Shown piece by piece: positions 2,487 to 28,675 of a stretch of DNA of 64,000 bases (its first letter is position 1; each line of letters opens with the position of its first letter). The notes under the pieces were generated by a model, which was not told the origin of the DNA, ran no database searches, and worked only from the letters and a program-made list of their open reading frames with translations. The position numbers were made by a program, and so were the translations under genes. Source of the stretch: Raillietiella orientalis (Eukaryota); the NCBI GenBank assembly GCA_036172245.1, contig JAYWIR010000010.1, positions 2,604,001-2,668,000 on the forward strand. The letters run 5' to 3'.

Positions 2487-5400
2487 TCATAAATAATTCC
2501 ATTCTGATGATCCCAAACCTCTTGATGATATCATTTTCCGTGCAATTTCCATAGGTATGTCATGACTCAGCCATAATTGGTGCAATTTTCTGTATTGTTC
2601 AACATTCAAATATAATGGATAGCCTCTTTTTAAACCAACATCTGTTTCTCCATACTCATCCAAATAGGGTGCAGGGCAAAAACAACCTAAAGCATCAAGT
2701 TATTAGTTTAGTAAAATGTCTATGATTTTTTTTTGCATCTGTGCATACTCTACCTTTAAAAACAGAAGCCAAAAGAATCAATTTGCATTCACGTATTCGT
2801 AAAAATATGCCTACACCACCACCACATAAGTATGCATGATAAGTGCAAGCTCCTACAAGCACGCCTTTCAATTCTTTTTGACAGCAATAACTCTAAGAGG
2901 AAAATTGGAAAGATGAATTATGCAGTGCACTCTCACCTGTGAACAAAGTACTTGTCCACAAACTAAACACATTGTGGGGGTGCGAGAATTTTCCCCATTA
3001 CTGTTTGGGCATAGGAATACTGATACTTCATTGATAAGAGTACTATAATCATAAGGTAAAGGTATCAGTTGATTTACTTTTAAGGGATACTGCACCAACT
3101 GCCACTTGCATTCCATGACACTATCACATTTTTTCCATATTTGGCAGGTCCAAGATTTAACTAAGAATATAATATCCTTGCATGTCAATAATGTTTGAAA
3201 GATATTGGTCATTCCCAAGTATGCTAACATGTTACCATATGTGTCACCACCTGGACTACATAAATCAGGTGGCACAGGAACTCCAGTTATATGATGCCAA
3301 AGAATACAAACACATCTTAAAAATGGAAGGATGGCTGTTTTTACATGATTATACAAAAACCCAGAATTGATGCAAGGTTTTTCCCAAATAGTTTCATATA
3401 AAATGGCTAGGTAAGATGCATCATTAGCATCAAGTTCATTACATTCCACATCCATAAACATATCTTCTGTGTTACATACCAAAATCTGAACTACATGCAT
3501 TAGAGTACATAACTGTGTGAGAACTAAATCAAGAGAATCTCCCTGAGGTAAACTATGCTTTGGCAGCATACAGCGTATAGAGCATACTGCACATACAAGA
3601 ATACCAAAAGCATCATGTTCTAACAAATGAGTTCCATCTCCTTCACCCATCATTAATAAACTCAGCAGAGTAAGACAGTGACTTCGTGAGACCTCTGGGT
3701 TAGGACCAACAATAGCCAATGTTCCACAAGCCCGCACCATAGCACCTAGAGCTTCATGAAGCCTTGATGAAGTTCCTCCAAATAAGGCCAAATTTTGCTC
3801 TCGCTGTAGCCATTCGTGTGCTAAAATGGTGTAAGCACAAGCTTGCCATGTTGCCAGAGATGCATTCTGATTGTCAGCAATCTGTCTTACATTCATTCCT
3901 TCTGAAAGATTGCACTTTGCAAATCCAGATATTACTGAAGGGAACTGAAGAGGAAAAACAACTTCTTCAATAGGATAAGTACCCAGTCTGTGCAGAGATA
4001 ACAAAACTTCAGGATTGCTAATGTGATATACAGCATGAGAAGGGAATTTTGCATCTGAAGTACCATACAACATTAATTGTTTACTTTGGCTCAATTGGGA
4101 AAAAACACTCAGCCAATCTTCAACAGATGGTGTTGATACATTTTCAAAATGGCAAGATTGCGGTAAAAATAAGGGAATTACAGAATTACTGAGTGTATCA
4201 CACAAAGGGCACAAAAATTCCTGCATATTGGATGAAGAAAGTTGATCTCTACGCACTGATGCCACGCTATAGTAATTACTCCAACAGTCTTCATGTAAAA
4301 CATGTCCACAAGTATTAATATGTGAAGCACAAATGAGATCCGCTTTCAAGAACAAGCTAGGCGGATTCGATAAATGACCTCTTTTCTGTGACAAAACAGT
4401 GGAGCACTGCACCAAAGCACACATTACAAGGGTTCGTGATTGACAAGATAGAAGTTGTTCCTCTTGGCATAAGATACATGTGTATTTGGTATCAGAGAAT
4501 TGCTGAAAACTCCTTTGGGGATTAAGAGCTTTCAACTGATTAATTTCAGAAGTTTTCAGTATTAACTCTGAAGCATTAATTTTCTCATCAATGCTCTCTG
4601 AAGTTACTTTAGACAGAATTCTAAAATAGTTAAAGCTTACCTTCCTCAAAGTGATGTGCATTTTCTTTCATGAAAGTTTGTTGCATAGCAGACATCTGGG
4701 CCAAAATACGTGCTTTGCGAGCCTTTACTAAATCAGCTCTTCTCTTTTTTTCTGCCTGGATACCTACATCTAGCTGATTGGATACATTGGCATTCTCACA
4801 GGAGTTCATATCCTCTGTTACCATCACCTATAAACTAATTCGTTTTAAAATTTCAGAAATTAATCCTAACCTGCTGCAGTTGCTTCAACGTCCACATAGT
4901 AAAGTCACTGTGCATATTAGTACGGGAAGATGATAACACTCTTTCCAGAAGTTGAGGCAAATTCCAAATTCGTGCTTTTTCACAAAAAACACTTGGATTT
5001 TCATGCAATGCATAATTAATAAGATAGAGAGCGCGATGCAACTGAGATTCTGTGACTAAAGATGCATCTGGACTTGCCATGCACCTGAGAACCTTGCAGA
5101 GCAAACTACATACAGTATCACAATGAAGAAGTCTTGTAACTCCTGCATATGCAGGGTTAAATGGAGGTAAAGAAGGAGGTACACAGAATGTTTGGCCAGT
5201 AGTCTCTTTAAGGCGCTTACACTGACTTTGCTCAGCTCGGGATTGCTCTTCTCGAGAATAGTGGTAGAAATACATGTCAAACTGACTATAGTATTCAGCT
5301 CGCAGGGAATACTTGCCACAACCCATCTTATTAGCAGGTTTCACAAAATCTGCCACTTTATTAATGGTGTCTTCTACAGCAAACAAACGATGTGTATGGC

Positions 5401-7976
5401 TAGGCAATACCTTAATAAGGTGCGAATGGCTCATAGGTTCAATGCATAATTGGTGAATAATTTCTTTCTGTAGAGCTTCTTCTGCTGATACTATACCTAC
5501 ACCAATCTGATGGCGTTCACCCACCAATGTTATAAGCAGTCCAAGAAACTCTTCTGCTAACAGTGCTAGCATTTTATGCGATTCTTCATCAATACAGGCA
5601 GTGCCATTTTCAAGGTCATCTTTGGCCCAGAGCATTAAGCCAAATCGATTTAAAACTTGTACAACAAATTCATCTGGATCCATCAGAGATGCCATAGCTT
5701 GTAGCAATATTATATCACGATCTAACATCTCTTTGCGAAACCGTACGTTTCGATAGAAATAAATTTGGTTTAAAATGGAAAACCCATTGCGTTTCCACAT
5801 TCCAGCCTGAACCTGTGCTACCAATACTTGTGCTCGTAATGCTGGCTCTACTAACTCCATAGGAGTAGGCTTGTGTTTGATATTGAACTCAATGTCATTG
5901 TGAGCCAGTCCATGAGCACTAAGATGAGGATGCAAAGCAGCCAAGAATCTAGTCAAAGGAGCATGGATGGACACTGGTTGACTTGATACATCATATGCCA
6001 GACAAGAAACACTCTTCTTTGTCAAAGTGACTGTGATCCATGCACAGCATGATTCATGCTCAGCACTCAGGCAACGTAGTACAGCACGGTATACCTTCAG
6101 CAATACAATGCGATCTGAAGCACACCATTCCACTATGAGGCTTATCACAGAAGATAGTTTGATCTGGATGTTGAATGCAGTCTCCCAATCTGGTTCGAAC
6201 TCTAGATGCAGCTCCACCTGTCTTACTGCAGCATCCATGTTCTAGATTAGTCCCAGGTTATCGGAACTTAGCCAATGAAGGCTACCTGCATCATTGACAA
6301 AATTTTCAGGAGCTGAGTCACGCCAGACAGGAACCCTCGACGCAGTTCATTTGTCCATGGATTGGGCAGCACACTCAAAATGTGTTCCACATCAAACAAA
6401 GATAGCAATGCTCGTCGAAAAGAGTTGAAGACAGGATGGCGCCCAAAACTCAGACGATTCTCAGCATTGCAATAATGGACACATTCGGCTAATAATATTT
6501 GTAATAAAACAGCAAGAACATTCTCTTCAGCCATGAGCTGATGGGCTAAAGTTGGAACAGTATACACCTGCACCAGCTGGGATGTCACAGATACAGAGTA
6601 GTCATGGTCATCTTCAATAAAATCACTCATTATTTTGCCATAATGACGGGTGAATAACTGCGCAAAAAGCTTTTTCCCCTCTGGTTCTGTCATAAAACCA
6701 GTAATAAACAACCGCTGCCACTGTAGCCGTGCCCCTTTCCAGAATTTTGTGTCAGATAATAATACAGACTCAAGTAAAGTAATGCTATTTTCCTTACTGG
6801 TGCACTGGGTAAATGCTTCCCTCAGGGGTTGGCAAAGATGAACACACAAACCCAACAGTTTTTGCAGCCAGGCAAGTAATTTAAGAACAAACATCTGATG
6901 CATCAACATAAGCACTGATGTAACTGCAACTTTTAAGGGTCGGCCAACAGCACGACCAGTCTGCCTTTCCACTGCAAGTTTTACATCTGTGCAATTCTGC
7001 TGATTTGCAACTTTCACCACACAGCGTCCTTCTCGATCAGTTGCTGTGGCCAATTCTACAGCTTCTTTGTGGGTGCATCCAACTGCTTGCATCAACACCT
7101 GAATTACTTGTTCATAGGTGTGTGTCTCATCATTGTAAAGAACTGTTGCATAATTCTTAGCATTACAGTCTAAATCCCATGATGCTGGATGTAAATCAGC
7201 TGGTAGATCAGCAGCAGAGTAGCAAGTAAGCATTTCATAGCTGTAACGAAGCACACAAGTAAAAATAACTGTACAACGACTTAGCAAATTCTGAAGCAAA
7301 GGATCATTAATAGATTTATCATCCGAAGTTATCTTAGCAGCATGTATGGTGCACCATGGACTTTGTTTCCATGCTTCTACATCTCCACAATCACACATGC
7401 CATTACCATTTGAAGTCCGCATCTTGTACCTGGAGAAAGTTTTGTGGGAACATACATATGTAATTTTATATAAACCTGTGGTGTCTATGTTCACTATTAT
7501 GAAAACAAGAAGAACACAGCACACAAGTTTGATCCAATGCACAGTCTTGACAACTATAAGTAGGTTCACCATCACAAAGTAGCATGCCACAAGCTGAAGG
7601 ATTGGTATTGAAATTCTGAAGTTTCTGAAATTTGCATTCCCAATAAAAGTAATAGACAATTATGTGATAGTAATTAGGCTTCTAGAGATACGTCTTTAAT
7701 TACCTCAAAAGTAACTTTGGGTTTCCCTTGACATATGAATTGTTCCAAAGGATCAAGAAGAAATTCTGTTATACTATCTTCATTATTAACTGTGTTAACA
7801 GAATCTGTTGACTGAGCACTTGTCATGAAAAACTGTGGTACTTGGATCTTCCAATATGATCTCAGCAAAGATTCCTTAAATTTTCCTTCTCGATAATATT
7901 GTGACCAATACTCCATGACAGCTGATGGATTATTAATCAAATTGTTCCCAGAATATATTTCATCAGGATTCTCCAT
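2487..7976 (-). CDS. UBR2: E3 ubiquitin-protein ligase UBR1/UBR2-type (N-recognin, Arg/N-degron pathway), 8 coding exons
   Basis: Exons 7976-7704, 7624-7476, 7429-6286, 6241-4871, 4827-4641, 4597-2937, 2892-2754, 2686-2487; all GT-AG and frame-consistent. UBR box ([60 protein letters not shown]; exon 2 is not in the ORF-track frame), ClpS-like domain (VLYNDETHTYEQVI), RING-H2 (CILC..CGHVLHEDC..CPLC), C-terminal PYLDEYGETDVGLKRG. UBR1 versus UBR2 cannot be distinguished. Confidence 0.95.
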
Positions 7977-16200: not shown

Positions 16201-16461
16201 GCCCTGTATAAGTAGAACGGGTCTTCCTGTGATGTCCCACTCCGGTCTAGCTCCGGTCTAGTCTTTCGATTTCGCCCTTCTCCGGCCTCTGAGTTGAACC
16301 CTGCCTCTGGCTGATGTGTCGAAGAGGCAAAGGATGGCAGCACCAACGCTGACTCTGTTCTCTTCCAAAGGGTCAGTGCCGCTGCCATCGACGAGTCGCG
16401 ATTAGCAGGGTTGCCACAGGAAGTCCCCTCGTTAAGATCATGTTCTCAAGTTCTTTGCTGT

Positions 16462-16581
16462 TTCTCGCCCGGGTGCGCCGGGGCGTTTCTTGCTAAACTA
16501 TCCAGGAACAGAGTTCCCGGACAAAGGACACAGAAGAAACGAAGGGGGGGAATCCCCGACACGCAGGTCGGTAAACCGAAA
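16462..16581 (-). mobile_element. 120-bp retroposed copy of the 3' terminus of the 11290-11909 LINE family
   Basis: Aligns to about 11290-11407 with 8 substitutions and one indel; flanked by a perfect 14-bp duplication AAGTTCTTTGCTGT at 16448-16461 and 16582-16595. Confidence 0.88.
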
Positions 16582-17299
16582 AAGTTCTTTGCTGTAACAG
16601 AAGCGTTCTGCCCGATCTGCTCATTCGCGAAGCGCTGATGCCCACTGGTGTGGATATCTTTTGCGATTAGGTCGAACAAGAAAGCAAGTCTACCAAAAAA
16701 TAAGGAAATTTCATTTCTCTTTTTCGTTGCTATGAGAATCTGCGCTAAGCTGTTTTGTTGAGTTGAGGAGTACTTCTTGCATGCAGAACACTTGTGTGCA
16801 CATCCGTGCACATTTCCACGGTTTACATTTACGTCAGCATAAAAAAAGACGGTTTCGTAGAAAGGTTTTTGTATCTTGGCTAACGAAACAATTGGTTCTA
16901 TAAACCTGGTTGGGACAATCTGCACTTCTTTTTTTTTTTTTTTTTTTTTCCATCCCATTTTAATGACTTCTTGCAAATGACACATTCCTTTATGATGATA
17001 AATCTTGGCAGTAGATTTTGCGATGACACGGTGAGCGGCGACGAAACAATTCGAAGACCGGGAGGTCCAATGAGGTTCGGCCTGCAAGTCACGTGACTTC
17101 CCGCGTGGAAACAAAACAAAGTACTCGAAGAAATGTTAAAAGTCTTCCGGCAACAGTTTCTGCTGAAGAGTTTCTGCACCATAGGTTGTAACAAACATGC
17201 TTCCCCATATTGTGGGTTTTGTAAACCAAATGGCTGGAGTTAAATTTTCTGGAGGAATCGACAAGCAGAACTAGATCTTTGAAATCAGTTAATGGGTGT

Positions 17300-19450
17300 C
17301 AGCTGAAGTGAGTTACGTGCATCCCTTCCTCAAACTTGAGTCCAGTCGGGAACCTTTCAGTGCCATACATGATACGTGGTATCAAAGAAACACCGGAGAT
17401 CAGATAGTTATTAAAATTCAGGAATAGACAAAGACCACAGCGATGTCTTTCGGCTGTTGTTGTCCCTATGAACTTGAAGAACTGCTTTTATTACGGTGAT
17501 CTTGGGGTAGCTTTTTAAGAGAGAAAGCATCGTATTTGTAAAAGCTACATTACCACTAAGGAAGCATTCGAAGCTCATTCTTCATTATCCTCTATCTGCA
17601 TCTTTGTCGTAACTAATTCGTACAACTGTATTCTGCTATTACTGTCTTTTATTGATTTTGTACATTTTTTCTCTAGTAAGGATGACTACGCCGCTATAAT
17701 AAATAAAAATGGATCAAAAAAGAAATCCTGGATAACTAATTGCTCTAATGAGAAGCCGGAAAAGAGACTTGCGCTCCCCTAGGGGTTGTTTTAGTTGTGT
17801 CTTAACACTATACCAGGCAGTTTCTTTCAGAATTCTTTCATTTTTTTCTTTCCGACTGCTTTCCCAAAATTCATCTGAGAAACCTAGCCTACTGAGGAAA
17901 GGTCCATCGTTTCTATAGGAAGCGGATCAGCTCATCCCAGATCTTCTAAGGCACTCCTCGAAAGCAAAAACTCCGCAAGTCCCTTTTCCAGTGAAAACTT
18001 CGAAGAACTGATTCAACTGTCGGAAGGGAACTCTTCCTTCTAATTTTGGGAGCCTCCCCAGTCCCCACGGCCTGTGGGGCACGATGCTTACGTCCGACAT
18101 AGGAAGTAGCATTCCTAAGACGTCTTACTGTAGAATTAATAACAGTCGAAGGGAACTGACTCCGGGACACCCATACGGCCCCATCCTCTGCATTTTCCCA
18201 CAGTTTTCCTAGTTGACGCGTCTTCAGGAGAGCTCCTCCCAAGTGGCTCAGGGGGGGAACAGCCTTCATCTGTGAATGAGATTGCAATGACCTCGACCCC
18301 AGAAACACTAGCCATGGAGATGACTGCGAAAAGAGAAGCACGTCCAACGGAGAGAAGGTTTACTCCTGGAGGCAATTTCGAGAATGGTTGGCAGGAAATC
18401 AGTTCCTCTAATCAGCATTTTTCTCGTTTACCTTTAGGAAAGACCAGCCCCTCCTTGAAGAAAAAAGAAAAGGACCTGCTCCCGAAAATGGAGAGGTCCT
18501 TGATGCCGTGGTTCGTCTTCAAAGCCCCGTTGATGCCACATCCGAGCAATTACTTCAAGATCCACCTATCACAAGCTGCTCGGCCTCTTCCTGACAGCTT
18601 GCGTTCGTTCTGTTTCTTTCATTTGGTTGGCACGCTGCAAGGGGCCCCACTCTCTTGCTCGCCTACCTTCACCTGCTTTCAAAGGACGCACATTCTTTTT
18701 AAAGGAACCAACGATAAAGCATTTTTATCCTCTCCGCGAATCTGTTTTTGATGTAACAATTCGATCCGCCACTCTTTGCCTTCCTTGGTCAAAAGGTATA
18801 TCATTGTGTCTCGGAATATCTTTGAGGTGTGCAAGTGCAATCTCCAAAGCTTTTCATAGTGTATTTGCATGTTTTGAAAACATCCTGGGATAACATTCGC
18901 TCCTCCGCGTACTGAGGTGCCTAAACGTATGCATAAAGTAAGTGCGAAGGGTCAGCTGGAAAGTTATTCAGAAAGAGCTTTTCTCATTACCTTCGCGGAA
19001 GGATTTCAAATTTCTTATCTCAATAACGTTTCGGCTTCCATGGGAGCGAATTTTCAGGAAACAAGGATACGTCTTTCAGATATGATCTCGACGGAGTCGT
19101 TTTTTTGCTATGACGATAGACACAGGCGAGCTGCATAAGTGCACCTTTTCTGCTTTCACTCTCTGCAGTAGTAATCTAGAACACTGGACTTGGAAAGATC
19201 TGGTGCTTCTCATTAAAAACAAGATGTGTGCAAAACAAAAGTCTTCAGTGGAGATTACGGGTTAGCTGGATGCCTTTGTACACAGAACTCATGGCTTTCT
19301 TGACAGACTATCAAATACTGGTGAAATCTTGCTTGCTCAGTAAAACCAGGGAAGAATAGGCTGCTTCAGAGAAGCCAGTTCTGGCATCGAGAAATGTTGA
19401 GCAACAGTAGGGAAGAGGAGACTGAACATGCTTTCGGAGGTGCAATCTCT
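17300..19450 (-). mobile_element. Decayed LINE reverse-transcriptase fragment; boundaries approximate
   Basis: Minus-strand remnants GRAACDRWILK near 18570 (EKAFDRV-like) and GKREKC*L near 18420 (GxRQGCPL-like), in the same order as in the 33839-37400 element. Confidence 0.4.
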
Positions 19451-19599
19451 TCGAGAGCATCAATAAAATGAAATCACCAGCAATTCTGAATTTTCACTCT
19501 GTCCATTCCCTTTCTCTTCGCCTCTGCTACGCTCATGATAAGTTTTTCCAACAGCCGTTACGGATTTCCGCTCAGCAAACTGCAGAAGTCTGATATTAA

Positions 19600-20313
19600 G
19601 CCATGGATACAGGAAAGACGTCTGGGACAAAACAAATGAAAGTTGGTTGTATACTGCTAACCAGAAATCCCTGAGAGCCGTCGCCACTGGACGAGGGGAA
19701 TCCTGGCTCCGGACTGTGCCAGGTGCGATGAGAGGGAAACCACGCCACACCTGCTTTTTGAGTGCGATGCCTTCCAAAGTGTTCGAGGACGTTTGGCTGC
19801 GTCCCTGGACTCACAGAGACAACGCGATAAACCTGCTGAGACGTCTCTTCATTCGCGGCAGAATGTCGCCTGCGGCGTCGATCGCAGTTCCGTGCTGCTT
19901 ACGCGGGGTCGTGGCAATCTAGAATCCACGATGAAACAGAGGCCGGACGACAAGAGGCGCCATCCTGATGGTGGTCTCCTTTTTGGGGAAGACTACGAGA
20001 TGACCGCATCTCGCTCGGCATGAGGAAGGATTCGCCGACATCCTGGAAAGGACGCAGAGAACTCCAGGAGTATATCTGTGCCCCAAATATTCTCAATTAC
20101 AAGTTTTCTTGTTATTTATTTTTTGTTTACCCCTCCCCCCTTATTTTCCCCGTGCAAGCCCCTCGAGGCAATCAGCTTGCGAGCAAGAACTTGGACTCTT
20201 ACCGACGTAGTGGGATTACAATTCCACTACGTTGTTACTGACTGTTTACTTGTAAATATGTACTTTTTTTTTTTTTTTTTACAAGAGACCCCCCTGCGTG
20301 ACCGGGTGAAAAC
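19600..20313 (+). mobile_element. 3' part of a LINE related to the 11290-11909 element
   Basis: PDCARCDERETTPHLLFEC (about 19709-19766) is homologous to PNCKRCREVETLPHLLLDC; after a frameshift HRDNAINLLRRLF resembles HQEDTARDLMCRFF. The 3' UTR shares TTACCGAC and the terminal CAAGA.AC.CCC..GCG...CCGGG...AAAC segment. Confidence 0.8.
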
Positions 20314-23300
20314 TCATTAGCAATAGCAATATCCTAATTTTCAGTGTGGCAGGCAATACCAAATGGCAGGAATCTCGTATTCGGAAATGGCTGAACAAGT
20401 GTAAGAGGAAATTGCAGAGTGTGTAATTGATGTGTAAAACGAAAAAGGTGTTTTCATATTCCATTACTGATGTACACCCGCGTAACCCTCTCTTTCAAAG
20501 ATGTGCAAGAACTCGAAGAGAAGCAGAGCACACGAGCAGCAAGGAGTGCCGAATCTACGAGCAGAAATCCCTTCTCACGGTTTCCTAGCAGCATCGGGGT
20601 TATCTCCCACCATGCGTCTGCTCGCACCTAACATCCTCTCCGCTGACTGTGGCGAGGCGGAGATGGCTTTCAGAATGCTTTCGAACGAACTGCCCACTTT
20701 CACAGTCCGTCCGAGGGAACTGACAACAGTTTCCCTTGCATCACTTTTCAATCCAATCTAATCTAATTCGTTTTTCATCTCCATCGGATTGCTTTTCCTT
20801 ATTTCTCCCTAAGCGGACGATCGTTAGTCACGAAATTGAGTTCCCCAAGAACTCGGTCGTGTTCCAACGAGGAATTCACTTACGTCTGGTGTCGATGAGG
20901 TAGAAAGAGGACAGGCGCTCTCCCGGAGATCGGGTACTCTATGAAAAAAGATTTACGTGTCCCAATTACCGGATCCATTTTTGATACGACCACAGGCGTG
21001 CCTGAAGTTTGCTCCCCGCTTGAGGAGGAAGAGTGCAGAATGGAAAGAGGAGAATTTAATTGCACGTGGTTTGATAAGACAAAACTTAGGAAATGTTTCA
21101 TGAAACCGTTTGAGGGACACTTATGATGGACGAGGTTCTGCCAGCACGAACTTGTGCCTTACAGATTAAAGCACATCTTCAATTCCCTCTCGAAGATATA
21201 AATTGCTTGTGTCAGATCTGAGAGACAACGCCGTCTGATAAAAACTCAAGTTATAAGAGCGAAGAGGCTAATTATAGGATTGTAGCTTAATTGAACTGTC
21301 ACCTAAGGTTAAGAGGACTAATGAGGCTTCCGAGAGTGCAATTCATATGAAGATTTATTCACACGTCTTCATGTGTTGGACGACGATCAATTTGCTGGAA
21401 TAAGCATAGGGCTGAAAGAAATCTTTAAAGTAGCTCCAATCTTTGGAGATGGTTGCACCTGAGCAACCGCTTGATTTAATTGGAAAGCAGATAATATAAA
21501 ACAATTCTGTGGAAAACAGGTGGTCGAAAAAATTACTGGGCGGTACGTCATAGTGGATCGGAATGAGAGAACAGCCGGAAGAGCAACTGCGCCGCAGCAT
21601 CTTTCAGACCGAAGGCTGGGACGAAATGCGGGAGCCGCACGCCACGACCGCCTCAACGTGACCCAGACTGGCGGTCTCCTCTCCAACGACCTCCTCACCG
21701 ATGACCAAATGTCACGGTGTTTTAGGTGTAAATTCGTTCGAAACTTCTTTCGTTCTGCTCTTACACATGTCGGAAAGTGAACGCTCCCCTCGACTAAAAA
21801 TGTTCGTTTCCGCTTCCTGATTTCCCTTTGAAAAGCAAAGGGAAATTAGGTATTTGCTAGGTTCTTATCAAGAAACTAAGACTATTTCAAGAGACAAAAA
21901 AAAATCTTCTGGATTTACAAGGCTCGAATGTGCATGTACCGACAACCATGAGTGACACGTGCAGTTGGATGTTAAACACACAAGGAATTTCTCAATGCTC
22001 AGTTCACGCTGTCTTTCCGTTTGAAGGCATGCAGCCTACGTCATGACCTTCATTTCAGAAACTGTTCTGGAAGACAGAAAAATTATCTCGCAATTATCCA
22101 ATTAGATACGGGGAACCACACCGCACCGATCTCATGGATGTGCTCACAGTTTACGATTTTCCAGTTTCGCGCTCTGGCGATATTCCAACTATTCCCGATA
22201 AACACTGCAGTTTTCGAAATGAAAACACGGCACAATCGTGGTCACTCGAAATTTTGGTGAGCACCCTTCCGATTCCAGGCGGATGAAATCTCCGGCTGGG
22301 AGGGGAAGGGAGAACGGTAGCCGCAGGACTCTCCGCGGTCTCTTCCGGGGATCCACCTGGCGGCGGAAAACGGAACTGATTTCCCCCATCCCTGCGCGGA
22401 GCGCGCGCCCACGCTTTGACCTCAGCCAAATAAGGGCGAGGAGTCTTCTTCCGGTTACGTCGATGTGAGCTGACGACAAAACTGCACTTTTTTTTTTTTC
22501 CTGATAATTCTGGGAAGTAGATTAATTAAGCCAATGAACATACACCAACCTAATCACGGATTCGGAAAAGGTGGCGACGGTACCAAATCAACCACCTCGC
22601 CCAAAGTATGGGACAATGCAAAATCATGAACGAATCGGAAAGCGACTTCCAACGTAACGTACACTACCAACGGAAAAAAGGTGCGAAATGAACAAAATAA
22701 CAAATGCTTGGCAGTTTCTGGGGTCCCACGGAAATAAATAAATATGGACACGATAAGCGCGTACGCCCTGTACTAACATAATAGTTATAATCAAAGCCGA
22801 GAATTTTGTCGAAACAAAAAAAAAAAAAAAACCTGACCATATACATTGCTTTCGGAAAATGGTGACATTTTATGAAACTGACGAAACTTTAAACGTGTCA
22901 GGTTTATCGTGTTTTGCTATCAAAATCGAAATGCTTTCAATCAACTATTGGTACGTCAATTGTGACAAATCATACAGACATTTACCCAAATATGGCTTAT
23001 CTCATTAACCTTGGGGATCTGCAATAAATCGGACAAAAACATGCAATCAACCAAATTAAACAATTTAAAGAATCAAAATATGGAAATTGGATACATTCAG
23101 ATGCTTTATTGGCTGTGCCAGCAAAATTCCAAATTACAGTCAGGGATTCAAATGCATCAACTTGAATTCTGAACATGATTATATTATTATGGAAATAACT
23201 ATCATGGCATAATTGGTTAAGTAACCAAGACGTTAAGACACTACTGCTTATTCACCACTGCAAAATAAAATTTCAGCTACCCTTGGAATGGTTCTTTTTG

Positions 23301-23547
23301 ATTGAATCCAAATTTAATGATATCTCATCTTCAGTACATACATAGTTCATGCTTTATTCTTTTTCTTATTCTTTTTTTTTTCCAAAAATACATTAAAAAT
23401 ATGTGATATAGTCTAGAAATGTTTTGAAAATCTTCATCAATTAAGTATATTCTGACTTGTATTGTACACAAACTAACACTGTAAACAAATATGAAAAACA
23501 TAAATTGCAAATCATTTTATTTTTCCAAGAAATTTTGCTAATCACAG

Positions 23548-26500
23548 TCACATGATGGTGCACAATCCTGATAGCTCTTTACCACGGAGTTTGGGAGGCA
23601 ATTCTGTAAGTTTTCTTCCTACAAGACGGGGTTTTGTAAGAGGATCAATGGGTCGGACAGTAATGGGCTTATCGAGATCCATTGTATTACTCTCTGGTAA
23701 AGATGAAGAACTGGACAAAGAACTTCCTTGTTCAGAACGCACCTTTATTGGTACTGCCAAATTGATTCTAATCTTTGTATTCTTGGAAAAAGCATCACAT
23801 GGACTAGGTGGTTCCAGTTCCACATTCCCATCAATACCACTTGAGACTATACGTTTTGTGGTGTCAGGAACCAATTCTGACAACTTAAACAAAGATGTTT
23901 CCTTATTTGGATCACTACACACACTAGTTTCTTTTTGCTGGGTAGTTGGTGAAATACCTGCTTCCATGGTACCCTCCTGGACAACATCCACAGAAAGTTT
24001 ATCATCTGAAGGTTTCTGGTCATTGCACTCCAAGGGAACAGTCTGGACAATCACTGAATCCCTAACACTAGCTGTACACACATCACTCATTAGTTCATCA
24101 CTCTGTACACAACTGACAACTACACTAGCTACATTTTCTTGATTTTTTGGAATGTGATGTTCAGATGGACTTGATGGCTTTAATGGTTCTCCCTGATCAA
24201 TGTTGTCATGCTGTTCTACATTTGGATCTGCACATTCTGAAGTTTCCAAAACAGGTTCAGAGCCTCCTAATGCAGAATTCAAAGGTGGCTGAAATCCTTC
24301 TGTGGTGGAATCTCCATAAGACAAAGGAGCTGCTTTGGCCAAATCACAAACTTTGGATTCTGTACATTCCTGCTGACTCCCACTGTTGGCTGTGTTCAAT
24401 TCTGCTGAGTCATCAGGCGATGAAACTTCTGGGGAACCTTTTGGCACTTCACACTCTAACACAGATTCTTCTTTCACAGAACTCATAACAAGCTGACTTT
24501 CATCATTACTAGCAGGAATTATCTCATCAGAAACAGATGCTGTTTGTGATTGCACTTCCATATTTTCTGTGGAATCACTTATGTTTGAAAACACTAAATC
24601 TAAGCCAGGAGGGCAATCTGGCATGGGCTTTATGGAGGCTTCTTGTTCTGCACTTTCTCCTGGTGGCATATCTTGAATACCACTTGCCAAGGAGGCTTGA
24701 TAGTCTTCAAAGCATGCAGGATGATAAGTATGACCATCAACACGCACAGTATCTCGCAAATGCCATTCTTCCAAATCTCGATGATAAAATTGTTCAAATG
24801 GCTCATAACATACAGCACACCGGTTTTCTTCCTCACTCTCACCAACATGTACTGAACTTGGTAATGAAGGTGTTTCCATATCTTGATCAACAGCTTCTTG
24901 CTGTTGTTCAAACCAGGAACGTGCACGCTCCTCAAGATCCTCGATCTCTTCGTATTGAATCCAGTCAGATACAGCATAAAACCAGCGCCGAGACTGCACC
25001 CTTCGAGCAGTGTCCTTCTCACGCTTATTCTTTCGGAAGTGCCAGTCTAAGTGAGGTCCATAGAGTTCTGCTTGTTCTGTGGGGAAACGAATGCCACAAG
25101 CAGAACATTGGATACCTCGATACAGGGATTTAATGCAAGCCAAGCTGCGTCTAAATAAACATGATATGCTACAAAGTTCACTACGTGTGTTACTTACGTT
25201 TTAAAGCGCTCTGACGAAAAATCTATTTCATTCATTGATTGCTCATCCTCTTCTGCAGATGGAGTCTCTTTCTGGGTTGATGGCAGCAGTCCAGCAGCAA
25301 CTAGACGGTTGTAAAGTTCAGCAATATTGGTTGGTGCTGATACTGGAGATGTAACATTAACACCATTAGTATGATATTCTGTTAAAGCAGGAACATCTGG
25401 GCCACGCACTGGAGGCAACAGACTAGACAATAAATCAAATGATGCAAGAGTAGGAGACACTTGTCCTCTTGGATGTCTACGTGTCTCTCTCTCATATGGA
25501 GGAGGAGCACGTGTACCCATGATAGGAAGAGCTGGCTCATAAGAAGGCCTGCTATCCTCAGATGGGCGACATAAGTCTTCATGCCGATATACAGGACGAG
25601 CCCTCAGTACAGCTGATGCAGAAAGCATACTTTTAAGGCGAACCTGGCCAGGAACTACATCCCTTGGAAGTGGAGGAAAGCGCACTGTGTGTGGCTGCCC
25701 ATCTAATTCAACAGGAAGAGCAGGCCCACCAAATTGAATTCCAAAATACGGACGATCATTTAAAATCAGAGTTTGTAATGCATCAGCAAACTGGAGAACT
25801 ACAGGAGCAGTCCCCAGCTCAAATCGCTGAGCCTGAGCATCCAAAAAAACAGGAACAGCCCATTTTTCATCTACCAACATTTGCATACGCGCTATCACAA
25901 GATCAGAACGGCGTGTTTCACCAATGCGAACAATTGGTGGTGGACCTTCAAGTCGAGCCGCCCTCTGTTTGCCACCCACAGTGACACGAACTGCATCCCC
26001 ACCAAAGAAACACTCATATCCCGTGCCATCAATGCACAATTCACGAGTAGGAACACCCAACCGCAGCTGATGGATGCGACCATCAATGTTATATTCACGA
26101 TATGCATCATTCAGTGCACAAGGGCAATGGAAACGCTCATCAATTATCACAGTCCTTACACCATCTTCAAAAGTAAGGTCCCGTGGATCATCCCAATCAA
26201 GGAAGACAATTGCAGCATCTCCGTAGAATCTCACAACACGAGCTACTCCATCAATTTGTAGTTGTTTCTCTTGATCAAATGACACAAGAGGAGAAGGAGC
26301 ACGCCCATGAGCAAGAGCCAAAAGTGTTCCATCCAATGTGGATGCTTCTCCAGGAGGTACAGCCAATGTCCAATCATTACCATGGTGGAATTGTGCCTGC
26401 AACTGCTGAACCTCACGAAGGTGTTGCAACTGCTCCAGTTGGGCCACTTGTTGCAACAGCATATCATACTGCTCCAAAGAAAGCATGCGTGCAGCAACTT

Positions 26501-28675
26501 GCTCTTGGGCTTCGGCTAAAATGGCTCTCATATCAAAGTGTTGCATATTAGGTTGTCCAATAGGCAAGTGTGTAAGGGGGGGTGAAGTGGCCCGTTGCAA
26601 CAATGATCGGCGACGCTCAGACGGATCTTCTGGTAATGGGACATACAATAAAGGACGTCCTAAGCCATCAGTCTGGGATCGATTCTGACTATGAAGAATT
26701 ACTTCACTGGGAGTAGGAGTTGGTAGAAGAGCTGGGCGCATGTCAATGTCTTTCACGTCATCATAAAATGAGCGGCAGGATACCAAAGAATTTGAGCCAT
26801 TTAGAGGAAGATAGCTCATTTGATTTTTTTCCTTGTATTTGGCCCAACTTGTTTGTGATGGACTATCTCTGTCTTCTGAAAGCTTTTTATGGCCAGGCAA
26901 TTGCCGTAAATCCACATCCTCCTTGCCAAATAATCTAAAAAAAAAAATCCAAACATATACCAAACCATACATCCCAAACTAACTCATTCATTAGTTCTTC
27001 ACGGGTTCGCTTTGTTCCAGGTTCATCGTCTCCTACATCAGCACTTCGTTTGTTTTTTGAAGGTGACAGAATTGGACGAAGATCAACATCATGACAGAGG
27101 TTTCCATCTGACTGTCCTTTATTTGGAACTGGTGCCACATCCTGCATAGGGGAATCTTCCACTTCCGCTTCATTACGACCTCGAACATTTCGTGCTCCTT
27201 TAAATTTCACTAGGCCTTTACGCTCGATTTTATCTAATGGTGGATTCTCAGCAGGATGAGACTTTCCCCACAAATGAGTATCTGCAGAGTGAGTAGGACG
27301 TGGTGTGAAATGGGCTTTGTTTGCCTGTTCCGATTCTGAGTCATCATGCTGAACTAAGAGTAAAACAAAATATACACTAATAGCTGCAACTCATTTCTAT
27401 AAATTTACGTTAGTACCTGTTTCCTTAAAAGGTGTAGCATTCAGCTGCTCACAGTTGGGAACTGAATTATTTTTGGAAGGTGCTCTCTCGCTAACGGATG
27501 ATGTACTCCTCGAGATTTCAAGTTTAGTTTGCTCTTTTAGATCTTTCAATTGCTCCCTCAATTGTGCTGCTACTTCACGATTTTTCTCTTCGCGCTTCAA
27601 ATCCTCTTCAGTTTGCCTAAGACGGCCCACCAATCTTGGATCACGATGTGATCTTTCAGCTTTATTTAACACTTTATTTTCCGCCGTTGGCTGTGTTTTC
27701 GGAGTAAGATTTGTGACATTTGTATCCTGATTTACATTGCGTAAATCTGTATCCTGAGATTTCTTCAGAAAAATCTGACAATCTTCCAACAATCCAATGC
27801 ATACCTGAACAACTGCAGCTGGTGCTGAAGCATTATTTGTTGGCTCAGTTGTAGGAGTCGTCGTTGTTTCAGTTTGTCTGTGCCGTGCCTGTAAGCCTAA
27901 TAACTCCATTTCCATTTCTACTTTTTTTGTCTGAAGATCTAGTAGCTCCTTTTGTTTGTGCAAGGCAGCTTCTGCACTAGCACCTTCCCCATTAAGCAAC
28001 TCTAATCGAATCTTCTGCTGCTGCAGCTCCAGCAGCTCTAAACGCTTTTTTAATAATTCTTCCCTCATCTGTTCATCAGATGGCTCTGGAGAAGGAGCAG
28101 GAGCACCTGGAGCTTTCAAAAATCGTGGATTCACATGTATACTAGTTGGAGCTGGCGCAGTAATTGGCCAAGCTGGATCAACTGCATTCACTCGGACATC
28201 AATAGCATACAACTTTTTAGATGGAAATACTTCATTCCATGTCTGACGTAATTTAAACATGCTAGCACGTGTTTTTTCATCGACCTAAAGTTGCAATGTG
28301 CACATTTATGCATTTTTGTCTTGGAATCCAGTAAACCTACTAACCTTTTCAAACACAGCACAAAAAGTGGATACTATGTTCTGAGTAAAAAGGGTAAGAT
28401 AAGTACCACCAATGTTTTTTACAATGGAATCCACCAAATACAAAACAGGCAATTTAACTTCAGGCTTAACCTAATAAGAGATACTTATGAATAAATAAAC
28501 CATTTCACCACAGGGTGCTGACCTTCAATAAATGTCGCTCCACTGTTTGCACAATAGCAGGGGCATGCTGGGCATTTTCTTCTGCTAGCATTGTTAACAT
28601 GTTTATTAAGGGTTTGCTATTGACACTTAAATCAGATAGTGATGATGCATATTCTGATGCAAAGTCGTCGCCCAT
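23548..28675 (-). CDS. PCF11: Pre-mRNA cleavage factor II subunit Pcf11 (CID, coiled coil, central invertebrate-type region, two zinc fingers, long acidic tail)
   Basis: Exons 28675-28523, 28470-28345, 28284-27805, 27753-27417, 27353-26984, 26934-25198, 25150-23548 (the 27804-27754 intron is inferred and in frame). CID: EYASSLSDLSVNSKPLINMLTMLAEEN..KLPVLYLVDSIVKN..FKLRQTW..DPAWPI. Zinc fingers CSACGIRF..HLDWHFRKN, SRRWF, CAVCYEPFEQFY..WHL..YHPAC. An in-frame upstream ATG at 28774 is an alternative start. Confidence 0.95.

Follow-up and report, generated by a model that had tools for sequence, protein, structure and literature searches.

The minus strand of the stretch of DNA analysed here (the window: 64,000 nucleotides of the genome of Raillietiella orientalis, positions 2,604,001 to 2,668,000 of contig JAYWIR010000010.1 in assembly GCA_036172245.1) carries the gene for Pcf11, an RNA polymerase II termination factor which makes up cleavage factor II together with Clp1. 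The encoded protein ends in Cys-Thr-Ile-Met (CTIM), the last four residues of a 28-residue C-terminal module which recurs, ungapped and with an invariant Cys fourth from the end, in Pcf11 proteins from all four arthropod subphyla. As read from the sequence, this end is a canonical farnesyltransferase-type CaaX box, with Ile at position a2 and Met at position X, and it probably works as a farnesylation signal that forms part of a longer linear motif. Pcf11 is a new candidate CaaX protein, and the interest lies in the protein concerned.

The gene is that of an arthropod Pcf11. The name, which had been given in a first-pass annotation of the window, is upheld by the Pfam Pcf11 families and by tblastn, in which full-length Pcf11 proteins from four arthropods align collinearly with the window from 28675 to 23551, and residues 1-150 of the horseshoe crab, centipede and mantis shrimp proteins match 28675-28087 with E values of 1e-44 to 1e-51. 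The families Pcf11_helical, Clp1_ID, Pcf11_C and zf_PCFS4 were all matched on the gene: the Pcf11 alpha-helical domain (PF20845) was found in the upstream frames with 43.9 bits (cut-off 27), and the frame of the last exon gave PF11526 (34.1 bits), PF21936 (31 bits) and PF23228 (28.1 bits), each of which exceeds its cut-off. The N-terminal CID, which interacts with the carboxy-terminal domain of RNA polymerase II, was recognized by tblastn of the N-terminal regions and as a Pfam fragment on the 54-residue frame holding exon 2, whose 23.4 bits fall just below the cut-off of 23.9 because a fragment only was scanned. The zinc-finger region is in addition a weak match to the yeast Pcf11 zinc-finger structures 2nax and 5m9z. 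Clean GT...AG splice sites bound exons 1 and 2 and the last intron, exons 3-5 could be delimited only approximately, and the junction across the last intron yields ...SSERFK-T-RSLACIKSLYRGIQCSACG, collinear with Diploptera Pcf11. The size of this last intron is close to the spliceosomal minimum.

The C-terminal tail was read directly. The reverse complement of 23548-23640 translates to ...LVGRKLTELPPKLRGKELSGLCTIM followed by TGA, so the open reading frame ends in CTIM (...KPRLVGRKLTELPPKLRGKELSGLCTIM, then TGA) as had been claimed, and 387 residues follow YHPAC (359 of linker and 28 of tail), where about 380, mostly acidic, had been estimated past the second zinc finger. Since the stop-free frame from 25200 to 23548 holds the Clp1-interaction domain, the second zinc finger and the tail together, the tail is reached without splicing. 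A chance CaaX box or an artefact of the gene model, such as a wrong terminal exon or read-through, might be suspected, as the tail exon is known here from genomic sequence alone and the downstream AATAAA occurs at chance frequency, but this is hardly credible: the zinc fingers and the tail share one open frame and the stop codon stands where 55 independently annotated homologues also end, by which such an explanation is effectively refuted. AATAAA occurs 200 times in the window against 188 expected, with no enrichment, and the hexamer 3' of the stop was accordingly dropped as evidence of the transcript end.

Queried by phmmer with the last-exon frame, a collection of 1.84 billion cluster representatives yielded 1,573 matches at E ≤ 0.001, and the window protein together with the best 150 of these homologues formed the set in which tails were counted (n = 151). 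A test for Cys followed by three final residues flagged 61 of the 151; five of these are unrelated ends of truncated models, and the remaining 56 share one homologous tail, the ungapped 28-residue module KPxLxGxxLxxLPPVxKGxELSGLC[S/T]IM, whose consensus with positions is K(-27) P(-26) x L x G x x [L/F](-19) x x L P P V x K G(-10) x E(-8) [L/T] [S/T] [G/A] L C [S/T/C/V/A] [I/V/L] M. The first tail pattern included the Cys and was circular in this respect, and the count was repeated with the upstream-only pattern G-x-E-x-[ST]-[GA]-[LM] placed at most 15 residues from the end; 56 sequences were again obtained, every one of which continues with exactly Cys and three residues. Likewise, the anchor P-P-V-x-K-G-x-E is followed by exactly eight residues in all 39 sequences that contain it, the Cys always standing fourth from the end, and neither a C-terminal extension nor a replaced Cys was found among the 56 module-bearing sequences. 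The first-pass annotation had named a lack of conservation of this Cys in orthologues as one outcome that would overturn it; the residue proved invariant in all tail-bearers, the window protein with its CTIM and stop included.

The four last residues vary within narrow bounds. CSIM (36 of the 56) is the commonest box, followed by CTIM (7), CSVM and CCIM (4 each), and CCLM, CSLM, CAIM, CVIC and CVII (1 each). Position a1 is the most variable (Ser 41, Thr 7, Cys 5, Val 2, Ala 1), a2 is Ile in 50, Val in 4 and Leu in 2, and X is Met in 54, Cys in 1, Ile in 1 and never Leu or Phe. Upstream of the box, an acidic residue stands at -8 in all 56 tails (Glu in 53, Asp in 3).

The last exon of the window was aligned with 47 orthologues chosen for having the tail, and mean identity to the window protein was 0.49 in the zinc-finger/Clp1-binding core, 0.11 in the linker, 0.53 in the terminal 28-residue module and 0.76 in the last 11 residues. 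The module is at least as conserved as the zinc-finger core, unlike the linker. The invariant columns of this alignment are residues of the zinc fingers and the Clp1 domain plus the CaaX Cys, and the zinc ligands are unchanged across all 48 sequences. The cockroach Pcf11 gives an example of the pattern: it ends in KPRLVGRKLTELPPVMKGTELSGLCTIM, near-identical to the tail of the window, and BLAST of the window protein against it aligns only the zinc-finger core and the last ~100 residues. By the measure used in PRENbase, conservation of the motif among orthologues, the tail is present in 56 of 151 sequences and in all four arthropod subphyla.

Source names came from 30 representatives and from the matches of the tail searches; among the tail-bearers, 19 were named, 3 were looked up without yielding a name and 33 were not looked up. 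All 19 named tail-bearing homologues are arthropods, comprising Hexapoda (Rhodnius, Cimex, Cacopsylla, Megalurothrips, Nicrophorus, Diachasma, Diploptera, Phlebotomus, Wyeomyia, Bactrocera, Teleopsis and Drosophila), Crustacea (Oratosquilla, Cyprideis and Amphibalanus), Myriapoda (Strigamia) and Chelicerata (Tachypleus, Parasteatoda and Tropilaelaps). In a search with a Drosophila tail, 67 of 67 dipteran matches end in CSIM, and both isoforms of Drosophila melanogaster Pcf11 (1,839 and 1,945 residues) end in ...KPALRNATLKRTKKVQNGIETSGLCSIM, the last residues being ETSGLCSIM. A search with a wasp tail returned only Hymenoptera, and its nine matches (query included) all end in ...SGLCSIM. The tentative suggestion of the first-pass annotation that insect Pcf11 proteins have SGLCSIM ends is borne out by these and the other insect tails. 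A word search with the window tail among longer proteins returned the cockroach protein only, and both this search and the one with the wasp tail are too narrow for a census.

The N-terminal CID, the helical domain and the Clp1-interaction domain between two zinc fingers are common to the arthropod protein and to yeast and vertebrate Pcf11. Vertebrate-like Pcf11 stops ~75-97 residues past zinc finger 2, whereas the arthropod form adds an acidic linker of 33-528 residues and the module. Ten long tail-less representatives were looked up, which are nine non-arthropods and one dragonfly model marked partial. None of the nine (a hemichordate, a fish, a coelacanth, a newt, four molluscs and a nemertean) bears the module or a C-terminal Cys-a-a-X; the distribution outside arthropods rests on these nine named sequences among the best 150, with nematodes, tardigrades, onychophorans and priapulids not among them. 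The vertebrate matches examined agree with the earlier remark that no CaaX box was known on human Pcf11. Four vertebrate-like clusters (P0070, P0081, P0083 and P0086) end ~76-78 residues past zinc finger 2 in E[SGT]Q..[SG]AI[IV][FY], and a VKLE/VKVKAES-like strand before the vertebrate end resembles an island in the arthropod and chelicerate linkers (KIKINI / IVMKVKAESI). Judging by this likeness, the vertebrate Pcf11 end may correspond to the KIKINI-type island, and the CaaX module may be an arthropod addition.

Tail-less sequences make up 95 of the 151. Many of them are fragments, 38 stop fewer than 60 residues past zinc finger 2, and several that have an arthropod as their closest named relative break off where an exon border seems to lie (...NSG, ...SSIDGDL, ...EYTLK-). 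These arthropod-like models may reflect missed terminal exons, real tail-less isoforms or lineage losses, and taxon labels taken from the nearest named BLAST relative are too rough to separate real loss from truncated predictions. One homologue model (P0065) stops at ...PPGEEPQLEYTLK-D, exactly before the 28-residue module, which suggests that the module is a separate small exon in some lineages. The predicted Tachypleus isoforms X4 and X5 (P0170 and P0172) end elsewhere, without the tail, and alternative splicing may produce a tail-less Pcf11. The 90% cluster P0089 (Cacopsylla/Diaphorina) mixes psyllid Pcf11 models with models named short-chain acyl-CoA dehydrogenase, one of which has 2,488 residues and ends in the Pcf11 tail; this mixture probably stems from models, of genes or of transcripts, in which adjacent genes were fused.

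The fit of the box to farnesyltransferase can be judged from screens of CXXX sequences. Kim et al. (2023; PMC10320760) tested all 8,000 CXXX boxes in yeast and describe a1 as highly tolerant and a2 and X as restricted, with a positive pattern for Ile at a2 and Met at X in their Ras-based data; the variation in the 56 tails follows the same pattern. In supplement S4 of that report, CTIM has a Ydj1 HM value of 3.83, where the cut-off of the authors is 3, a Ras HM value of 19.2 and a Ydj1 enrichment of 0.63, and the corresponding values of CSIM are 3.76, 17.6 and 0.56. These Ydj1 enrichments resemble those of the canonical cleaved boxes CVIA (0.41) and CVLS (0.49) in the same work. The a2 and X residues of CTIM are thus acceptable, as far as the yeast enzyme is concerned, and the earlier proposal that CTIM is a farnesyltransferase-type signal agrees with both its residues and its behaviour, and that of CSIM, in the yeast screens. 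Hildebrandt et al. (2024; PMC11152559) report that human farnesyltransferase fully modified CSIM and CAIM in a yeast reporter and that human Rce1 cleaved a-factor-CSIM.

The attached lipid could be mainly geranylgeranyl, transferred by geranylgeranyltransferase I (GGTase-I), rather than farnesyl, as Met-ending boxes including CSIM and CAIM were partly modified without farnesyltransferase (CSIM to ~50% by human GGTase-I in yeast; PMC11152559) and one spider orthologue ends in CVII. Given the prevalence of Met at X and the full modification of CSIM by farnesyltransferase in the same reporter, a mainly geranylgeranylated tail would be a marked surprise.

Several points weigh against a functional farnesylation signal. 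The screens used yeast and human enzymes, not arthropod ones, and the transfer of their results rests on the general conservation of the CaaX pathway (PMC10320760). Literature searches yielded no biochemical evidence of lipidation for any Pcf11 and nothing tying Pcf11 (or CG10228) to prenylation. The set of 47 orthologues was picked by the tail, which makes the invariance of its Cys column circular and leaves the contrast with the linker free of this defect. The tail may have been lost in some arthropod lineages, and such loss is put as a possibility because many arthropod-like tail-less models are fragments or end at apparent exon borders. No conserved polybasic or second-Cys signal was found in the 56 tails, and the adjoining linker is strongly acidic, both of which weigh against stable membrane binding. 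Finally, conservation reaches ~24 residues upstream of the box, which exceeds the needs of farnesyltransferase, and the Cys could serve in docking that involves no lipid.

This last point leads to the serious rival, namely that the 28-residue module is a lipid-free C-terminal docking motif that might fit a PDZ-type or other carboxy-terminus pocket of a partner in the 3'-end machinery, with the Cys unprenylated. The fixed spacing of the upstream conservation would suit such a motif, as would the last three residues, which match [S/T]-x-hydrophobic-COOH in 48 of 56; the fit to the class I PDZ-type pattern (Ser or Thr at -2 in these 48, Cys, Val or Ala in the other 8, and Met last in 54 of 56) is nevertheless loose and leaves the invariant Cys unexplained. 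The conserved hydrophobic C-termini without Cys of the four vertebrate-like clusters (...SAIIF, ...GAIIF, ...SAIVF, ...SAIIY) point the same way, and Maurer-Stroh et al. (2007; PMC1847700) state that a conserved CaaX-like Cys can be prenylation-independent or out of context. A purely lipid-free role is still unlikely, as the Cys is invariant while -2 varies (S, T, C, V, A), every variant is itself a good CaaX box (CSIM, CAIM, CSVM, CCIM, CVIC, CVII), and an accessible CSIM on a protein made in the cytosol is hard to shield from an enzyme that modified this box fully in the reporter (PMC11152559).

The upstream residues bear on farnesylation in another way as well. PrePS models the ~12 C-terminal residues physicochemically (PMC1847700), and the conserved G-x-E-L-S-G-L and LPPV positions reach beyond them. 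Because these and other upstream residues (G at -10, E at -8, S/T at -6, G at -5, L at -4, LPPV and KP) are conserved at fixed spacing, the lipidated end would probably be a composite ligand, and the tail is probably a composite motif rather than a simple lipid anchor. From the observed sequence, position, conservation and substitution pattern of the tail, we infer the most likely course of modification and processing, and from it every downstream function. Protein farnesyltransferase would attach a farnesyl group to the tail Cys, a Rce1- or Ste24-type protease would then remove -TIM, and the new C-terminal Cys would be carboxymethylated, leaving a hydrophobic end on a long flexible acidic tether. 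This lipidated end would act as a composite lipid-plus-peptide ligand, either read by a partner protein or giving weak, reversible attachment to the inner nuclear membrane.

A further variant is transient prenylation as in prelamin A, in which the lipidated end would direct maturation or targeting and a cut upstream would then leave a lipid-free mature Pcf11. CSIM, the commonest box, is also that of prelamin A, in which farnesylation is followed by a cut 15 residues before the C-terminus (PMC11152559), and the conserved KP, L and LPPV are possible markers of a processing site; none of the data call for cleavage, no likeness to the prelamin A cleavage site was seen (none was tested for), and such a course is improbable. 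The tetrapeptides of prelamin A (CSIM) and lamin B (CAIM) are those of 36 and 1 of the 56 arthropod tails, respectively, whereas the upstream context is unrelated and Pcf11 has neither an intermediate-filament rod nor an Ig fold.

The membrane question turns largely on charge. The basic patch beside the box, which the first-pass annotation had taken as a second membrane signal, is present in the window tail (net charge +5, with seven Lys/Arg in 28 residues) but is not conserved: across the last 28 residues of the 56 tails the net charge averages +2.2, ranges from -1 to +5 and is 0 or negative in 10, and Glu at -8 is near-invariant. K-Ras4B likewise has a farnesyl-type CaaX box ending in Met near Lys/Arg; unlike in K-Ras4B, the basic character is not conserved in Pcf11 tails, which instead have an invariant acidic residue at -8, and no conserved polybasic stretch of this type lies beside the box across the 56 tails. 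A strong constitutive anchor of the K-Ras type is unlikely, given the lack of a conserved basic patch, the near-invariant Glu at -8 and the high acidity of the adjoining linker.

The earlier proposals that the tail serves as an inner-nuclear-membrane anchor and couples 3'-end formation to export are pure conjecture. The idea of such an anchor has a fly precedent in lamin Dm0 and Kugelkern, which like arthropod Pcf11 are nuclear proteins ending in a CaaX box and which need farnesylation to act on the nuclear membrane; GFP-NLS-CaaX alone is active there, though weakly, and farnesylated peptides bind vesicles only partially (PMC2947476). The likeness is one of functional analogy only, since Pfam finds only Pcf11 families on the last exon and no homology to lamin or Kugelkern was seen, and the Pcf11 tail is, unlike theirs, set off from the body of the protein by a long acidic linker. 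Pcf11 acts on chromatin with RNA polymerase II. Soluble non-GTPase CaaX proteins such as Pex19, Spindly, CENP-E and CENP-F, in which farnesyl is a protein-protein interaction element, offer another comparison. The farnesyl group of Spindly binds the RZZ complex. Farnesyl-dependent protein binding is described in PMC1847700, and the farnesylation of Pex19 is critical for client binding according to PMC11152559. In its most extended and rather doubtful form, the farnesylation model would have a fraction of arthropod cleavage factor II (Pcf11-Clp1) held by the farnesylated, carboxymethylated C-terminus on an acidic leash of ~250-500 residues at the inner nuclear membrane, the pore region or a farnesyl-reading partner, with the mevalonate pathway and farnesyltransferase directly tuning termination and poly(A)-site choice.

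The linker that would form this leash has 63 Asp/Glu against 22 Lys/Arg in its 359 residues in the window; among tail-bearers it measures 33-528 residues (median 255), with a median net charge of -52. Islands common to insects and some crustaceans interrupt it, namely SSIDGNVEL (~95 residues from the end), KIKINISKPL (~75) and LPPGEE (~40). A SSGIDGNVEL-type pattern occurs in 19 of the 56 tail-bearers, 17 times at 92-158 residues from the C-terminus and twice elsewhere (-243 and -1359), and chelicerate tails have FRPPTPDPRF where others have KPxLxG. Hydrophobic-K-x-E motifs (VKTE, IKEE, VKQE, IKTE), which we take to match the SUMO-consensus form, recur in both arthropod and vertebrate Pcf11 linkers, and F-x-x-V-x-[VI]-K-x-E is often found ~125 residues before the arthropod Pcf11 C-terminus.

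AlphaFold2 assigned predicted local distance difference test (pLDDT) values of 92-97 to the zinc fingers, 37-49 to the linker, 68-81 to residues 501-520, 56 to residues 521-530 and below 50 to the last three. Folded alone, the 34-residue tail gave 72, 77, 60 and 53, with no regular structure. As the raised pLDDT of the module recurs in the tail alone, it is a local or alignment signal and not a predicted contact, and the module looks like an extended linear motif with a flexible end rather than a domain. The C-terminus is flexible and accessible by prediction, the last 13 residues having pLDDT values of 42-56 and no secondary structure. A predicted complex of the zinc-finger core (residues 1-168) with the tail (490-533) scored 0.00 with alignments unused, which speaks neither for nor against contact, and a search of the ESM Atlas with the tail gave no usable match.

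Features of the Pcf11 gene in the window, with positions numbered from the first letter of the window
Feature	Position	Strand	Evidence or remark
Pcf11 gene, start codon (ATG 28675) to stop codon, at least 6 coding exons	23548..28675	-	tblastn, reading frames, splice sites, Pfam
Exon 1, MGDDFASEY...ERHLLK, 51 codons, donor AAG/GTCAGC; CID begins	28523..28675	-	tblastn, splice sites
Exon 2, 42 CID codons, acceptor TTAG/, donor AAG/GTTAGT	28345..28470	-	splice sites, Pfam CID fragment
Last intron, 47 nt, GTAAGT...TTTAG, phase 2	25151..25197	-	splice sites
Last exon, single open frame, zinc finger 1 through stop	23548..25150	-	frame analysis
Zinc finger 1, Clp1-interaction domain and zinc finger 2, 146 residues	24712..25149	-	Pfam, AlphaFold2
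Acidic, fast-evolving, disordered linker, 359 residues	23635..24711	-	composition, pLDDT, identity
Island SSGIDGNVEL in the linker, ~95 residues before the end	23815..23844	-	mean identity 0.43
Island KIRINLAVP (consensus KIKINISKPL), ~75 residues before the end	23749..23775	-	mean identity 0.40
28-residue C-terminal module KPRLVGRKLTELPPKLRGKELSGLCTIM	23551..23634	-	ungapped C-terminal alignment
CaaX box Cys-Thr-Ile-Met, predicted farnesylation site	23551..23562	-	frame translation
Stop codon TGA, same end position as in every tail-bearing orthologue	23548..23550	-	frame, orthologue ends
AATAAA, 27 nt 3' of the stop	23516..23521	-	could be a poly(A) signal; hexamer not enriched in the window

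Antisense to the last Pcf11 exon, the plus strand has open frames at 23504-24142 (212 residues) and 24513-25133 (206 residues), which have no other support and are probably shadows of the coding strand. The region of ~16400-22500, which follows directly on the 3' end of Pcf11, holds many overlapping medium-length frames on both strands, with a GC content of up to 0.51, and the frame at 19661-20023 (plus strand) contains a Cys/His-rich ...HLLFECDAF... stretch, which is presumably of the non-LTR retrotransposon ORF2 C-terminus type; the region is probably decayed transposon sequence. Elsewhere in the window, three long minus-strand frames at 2868-7659 with UBR-box, ClpS-like, UBR1 winged-helix and PRT6_C domains together look like a gene for a UBR1/N-recognin-type E3 ubiquitin ligase, and a minus-strand frame at 45428-46036 matches PAXNEB (Elp4-like Elongator subunit) with an E value of 1e-20.

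Pcf11 is a rate-limiting factor both in the termination of RNA polymerase II and in the choice of poly(A) site. It has been studied intensively, and the literature searches made brought up no core 3'-end processing factor with a lipid modification. 'Pcf11' is absent from the main text of the fly prenyl-protease paper PMC3362292 and of the PRENbase paper PMC1847700; PRENbase, a ranking of conserved CaaX clusters, may already include the Pcf11 tail. The CaaX box is conserved in four arthropod subphyla as tightly as the zinc ligands, which implies a selected function, and since Drosophila melanogaster Pcf11 has the same tail, this function is testable at once with standard fly tools. The conserved tail points to a possible lipid-dependent control of the Pcf11 machinery that has gone unrecognized. 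Even without a lipid on the Cys, the tail stands as a linear motif of Pcf11, newly defined and deeply conserved. A real lipid would link isoprenoid metabolism to mRNA 3'-end formation, bring a chromatin-associated factor into the small group of nuclear proteins known to be farnesylated and constitute an arthropod-specific feature of an essential gene. Should the tether reading hold in addition, farnesyltransferase inhibition or a Cys-to-Ser change in Drosophila would lead to read-through transcription and shifts in alternative polyadenylation, and arthropods would have on their core 3'-end machinery a lipid switch that vertebrates lack.

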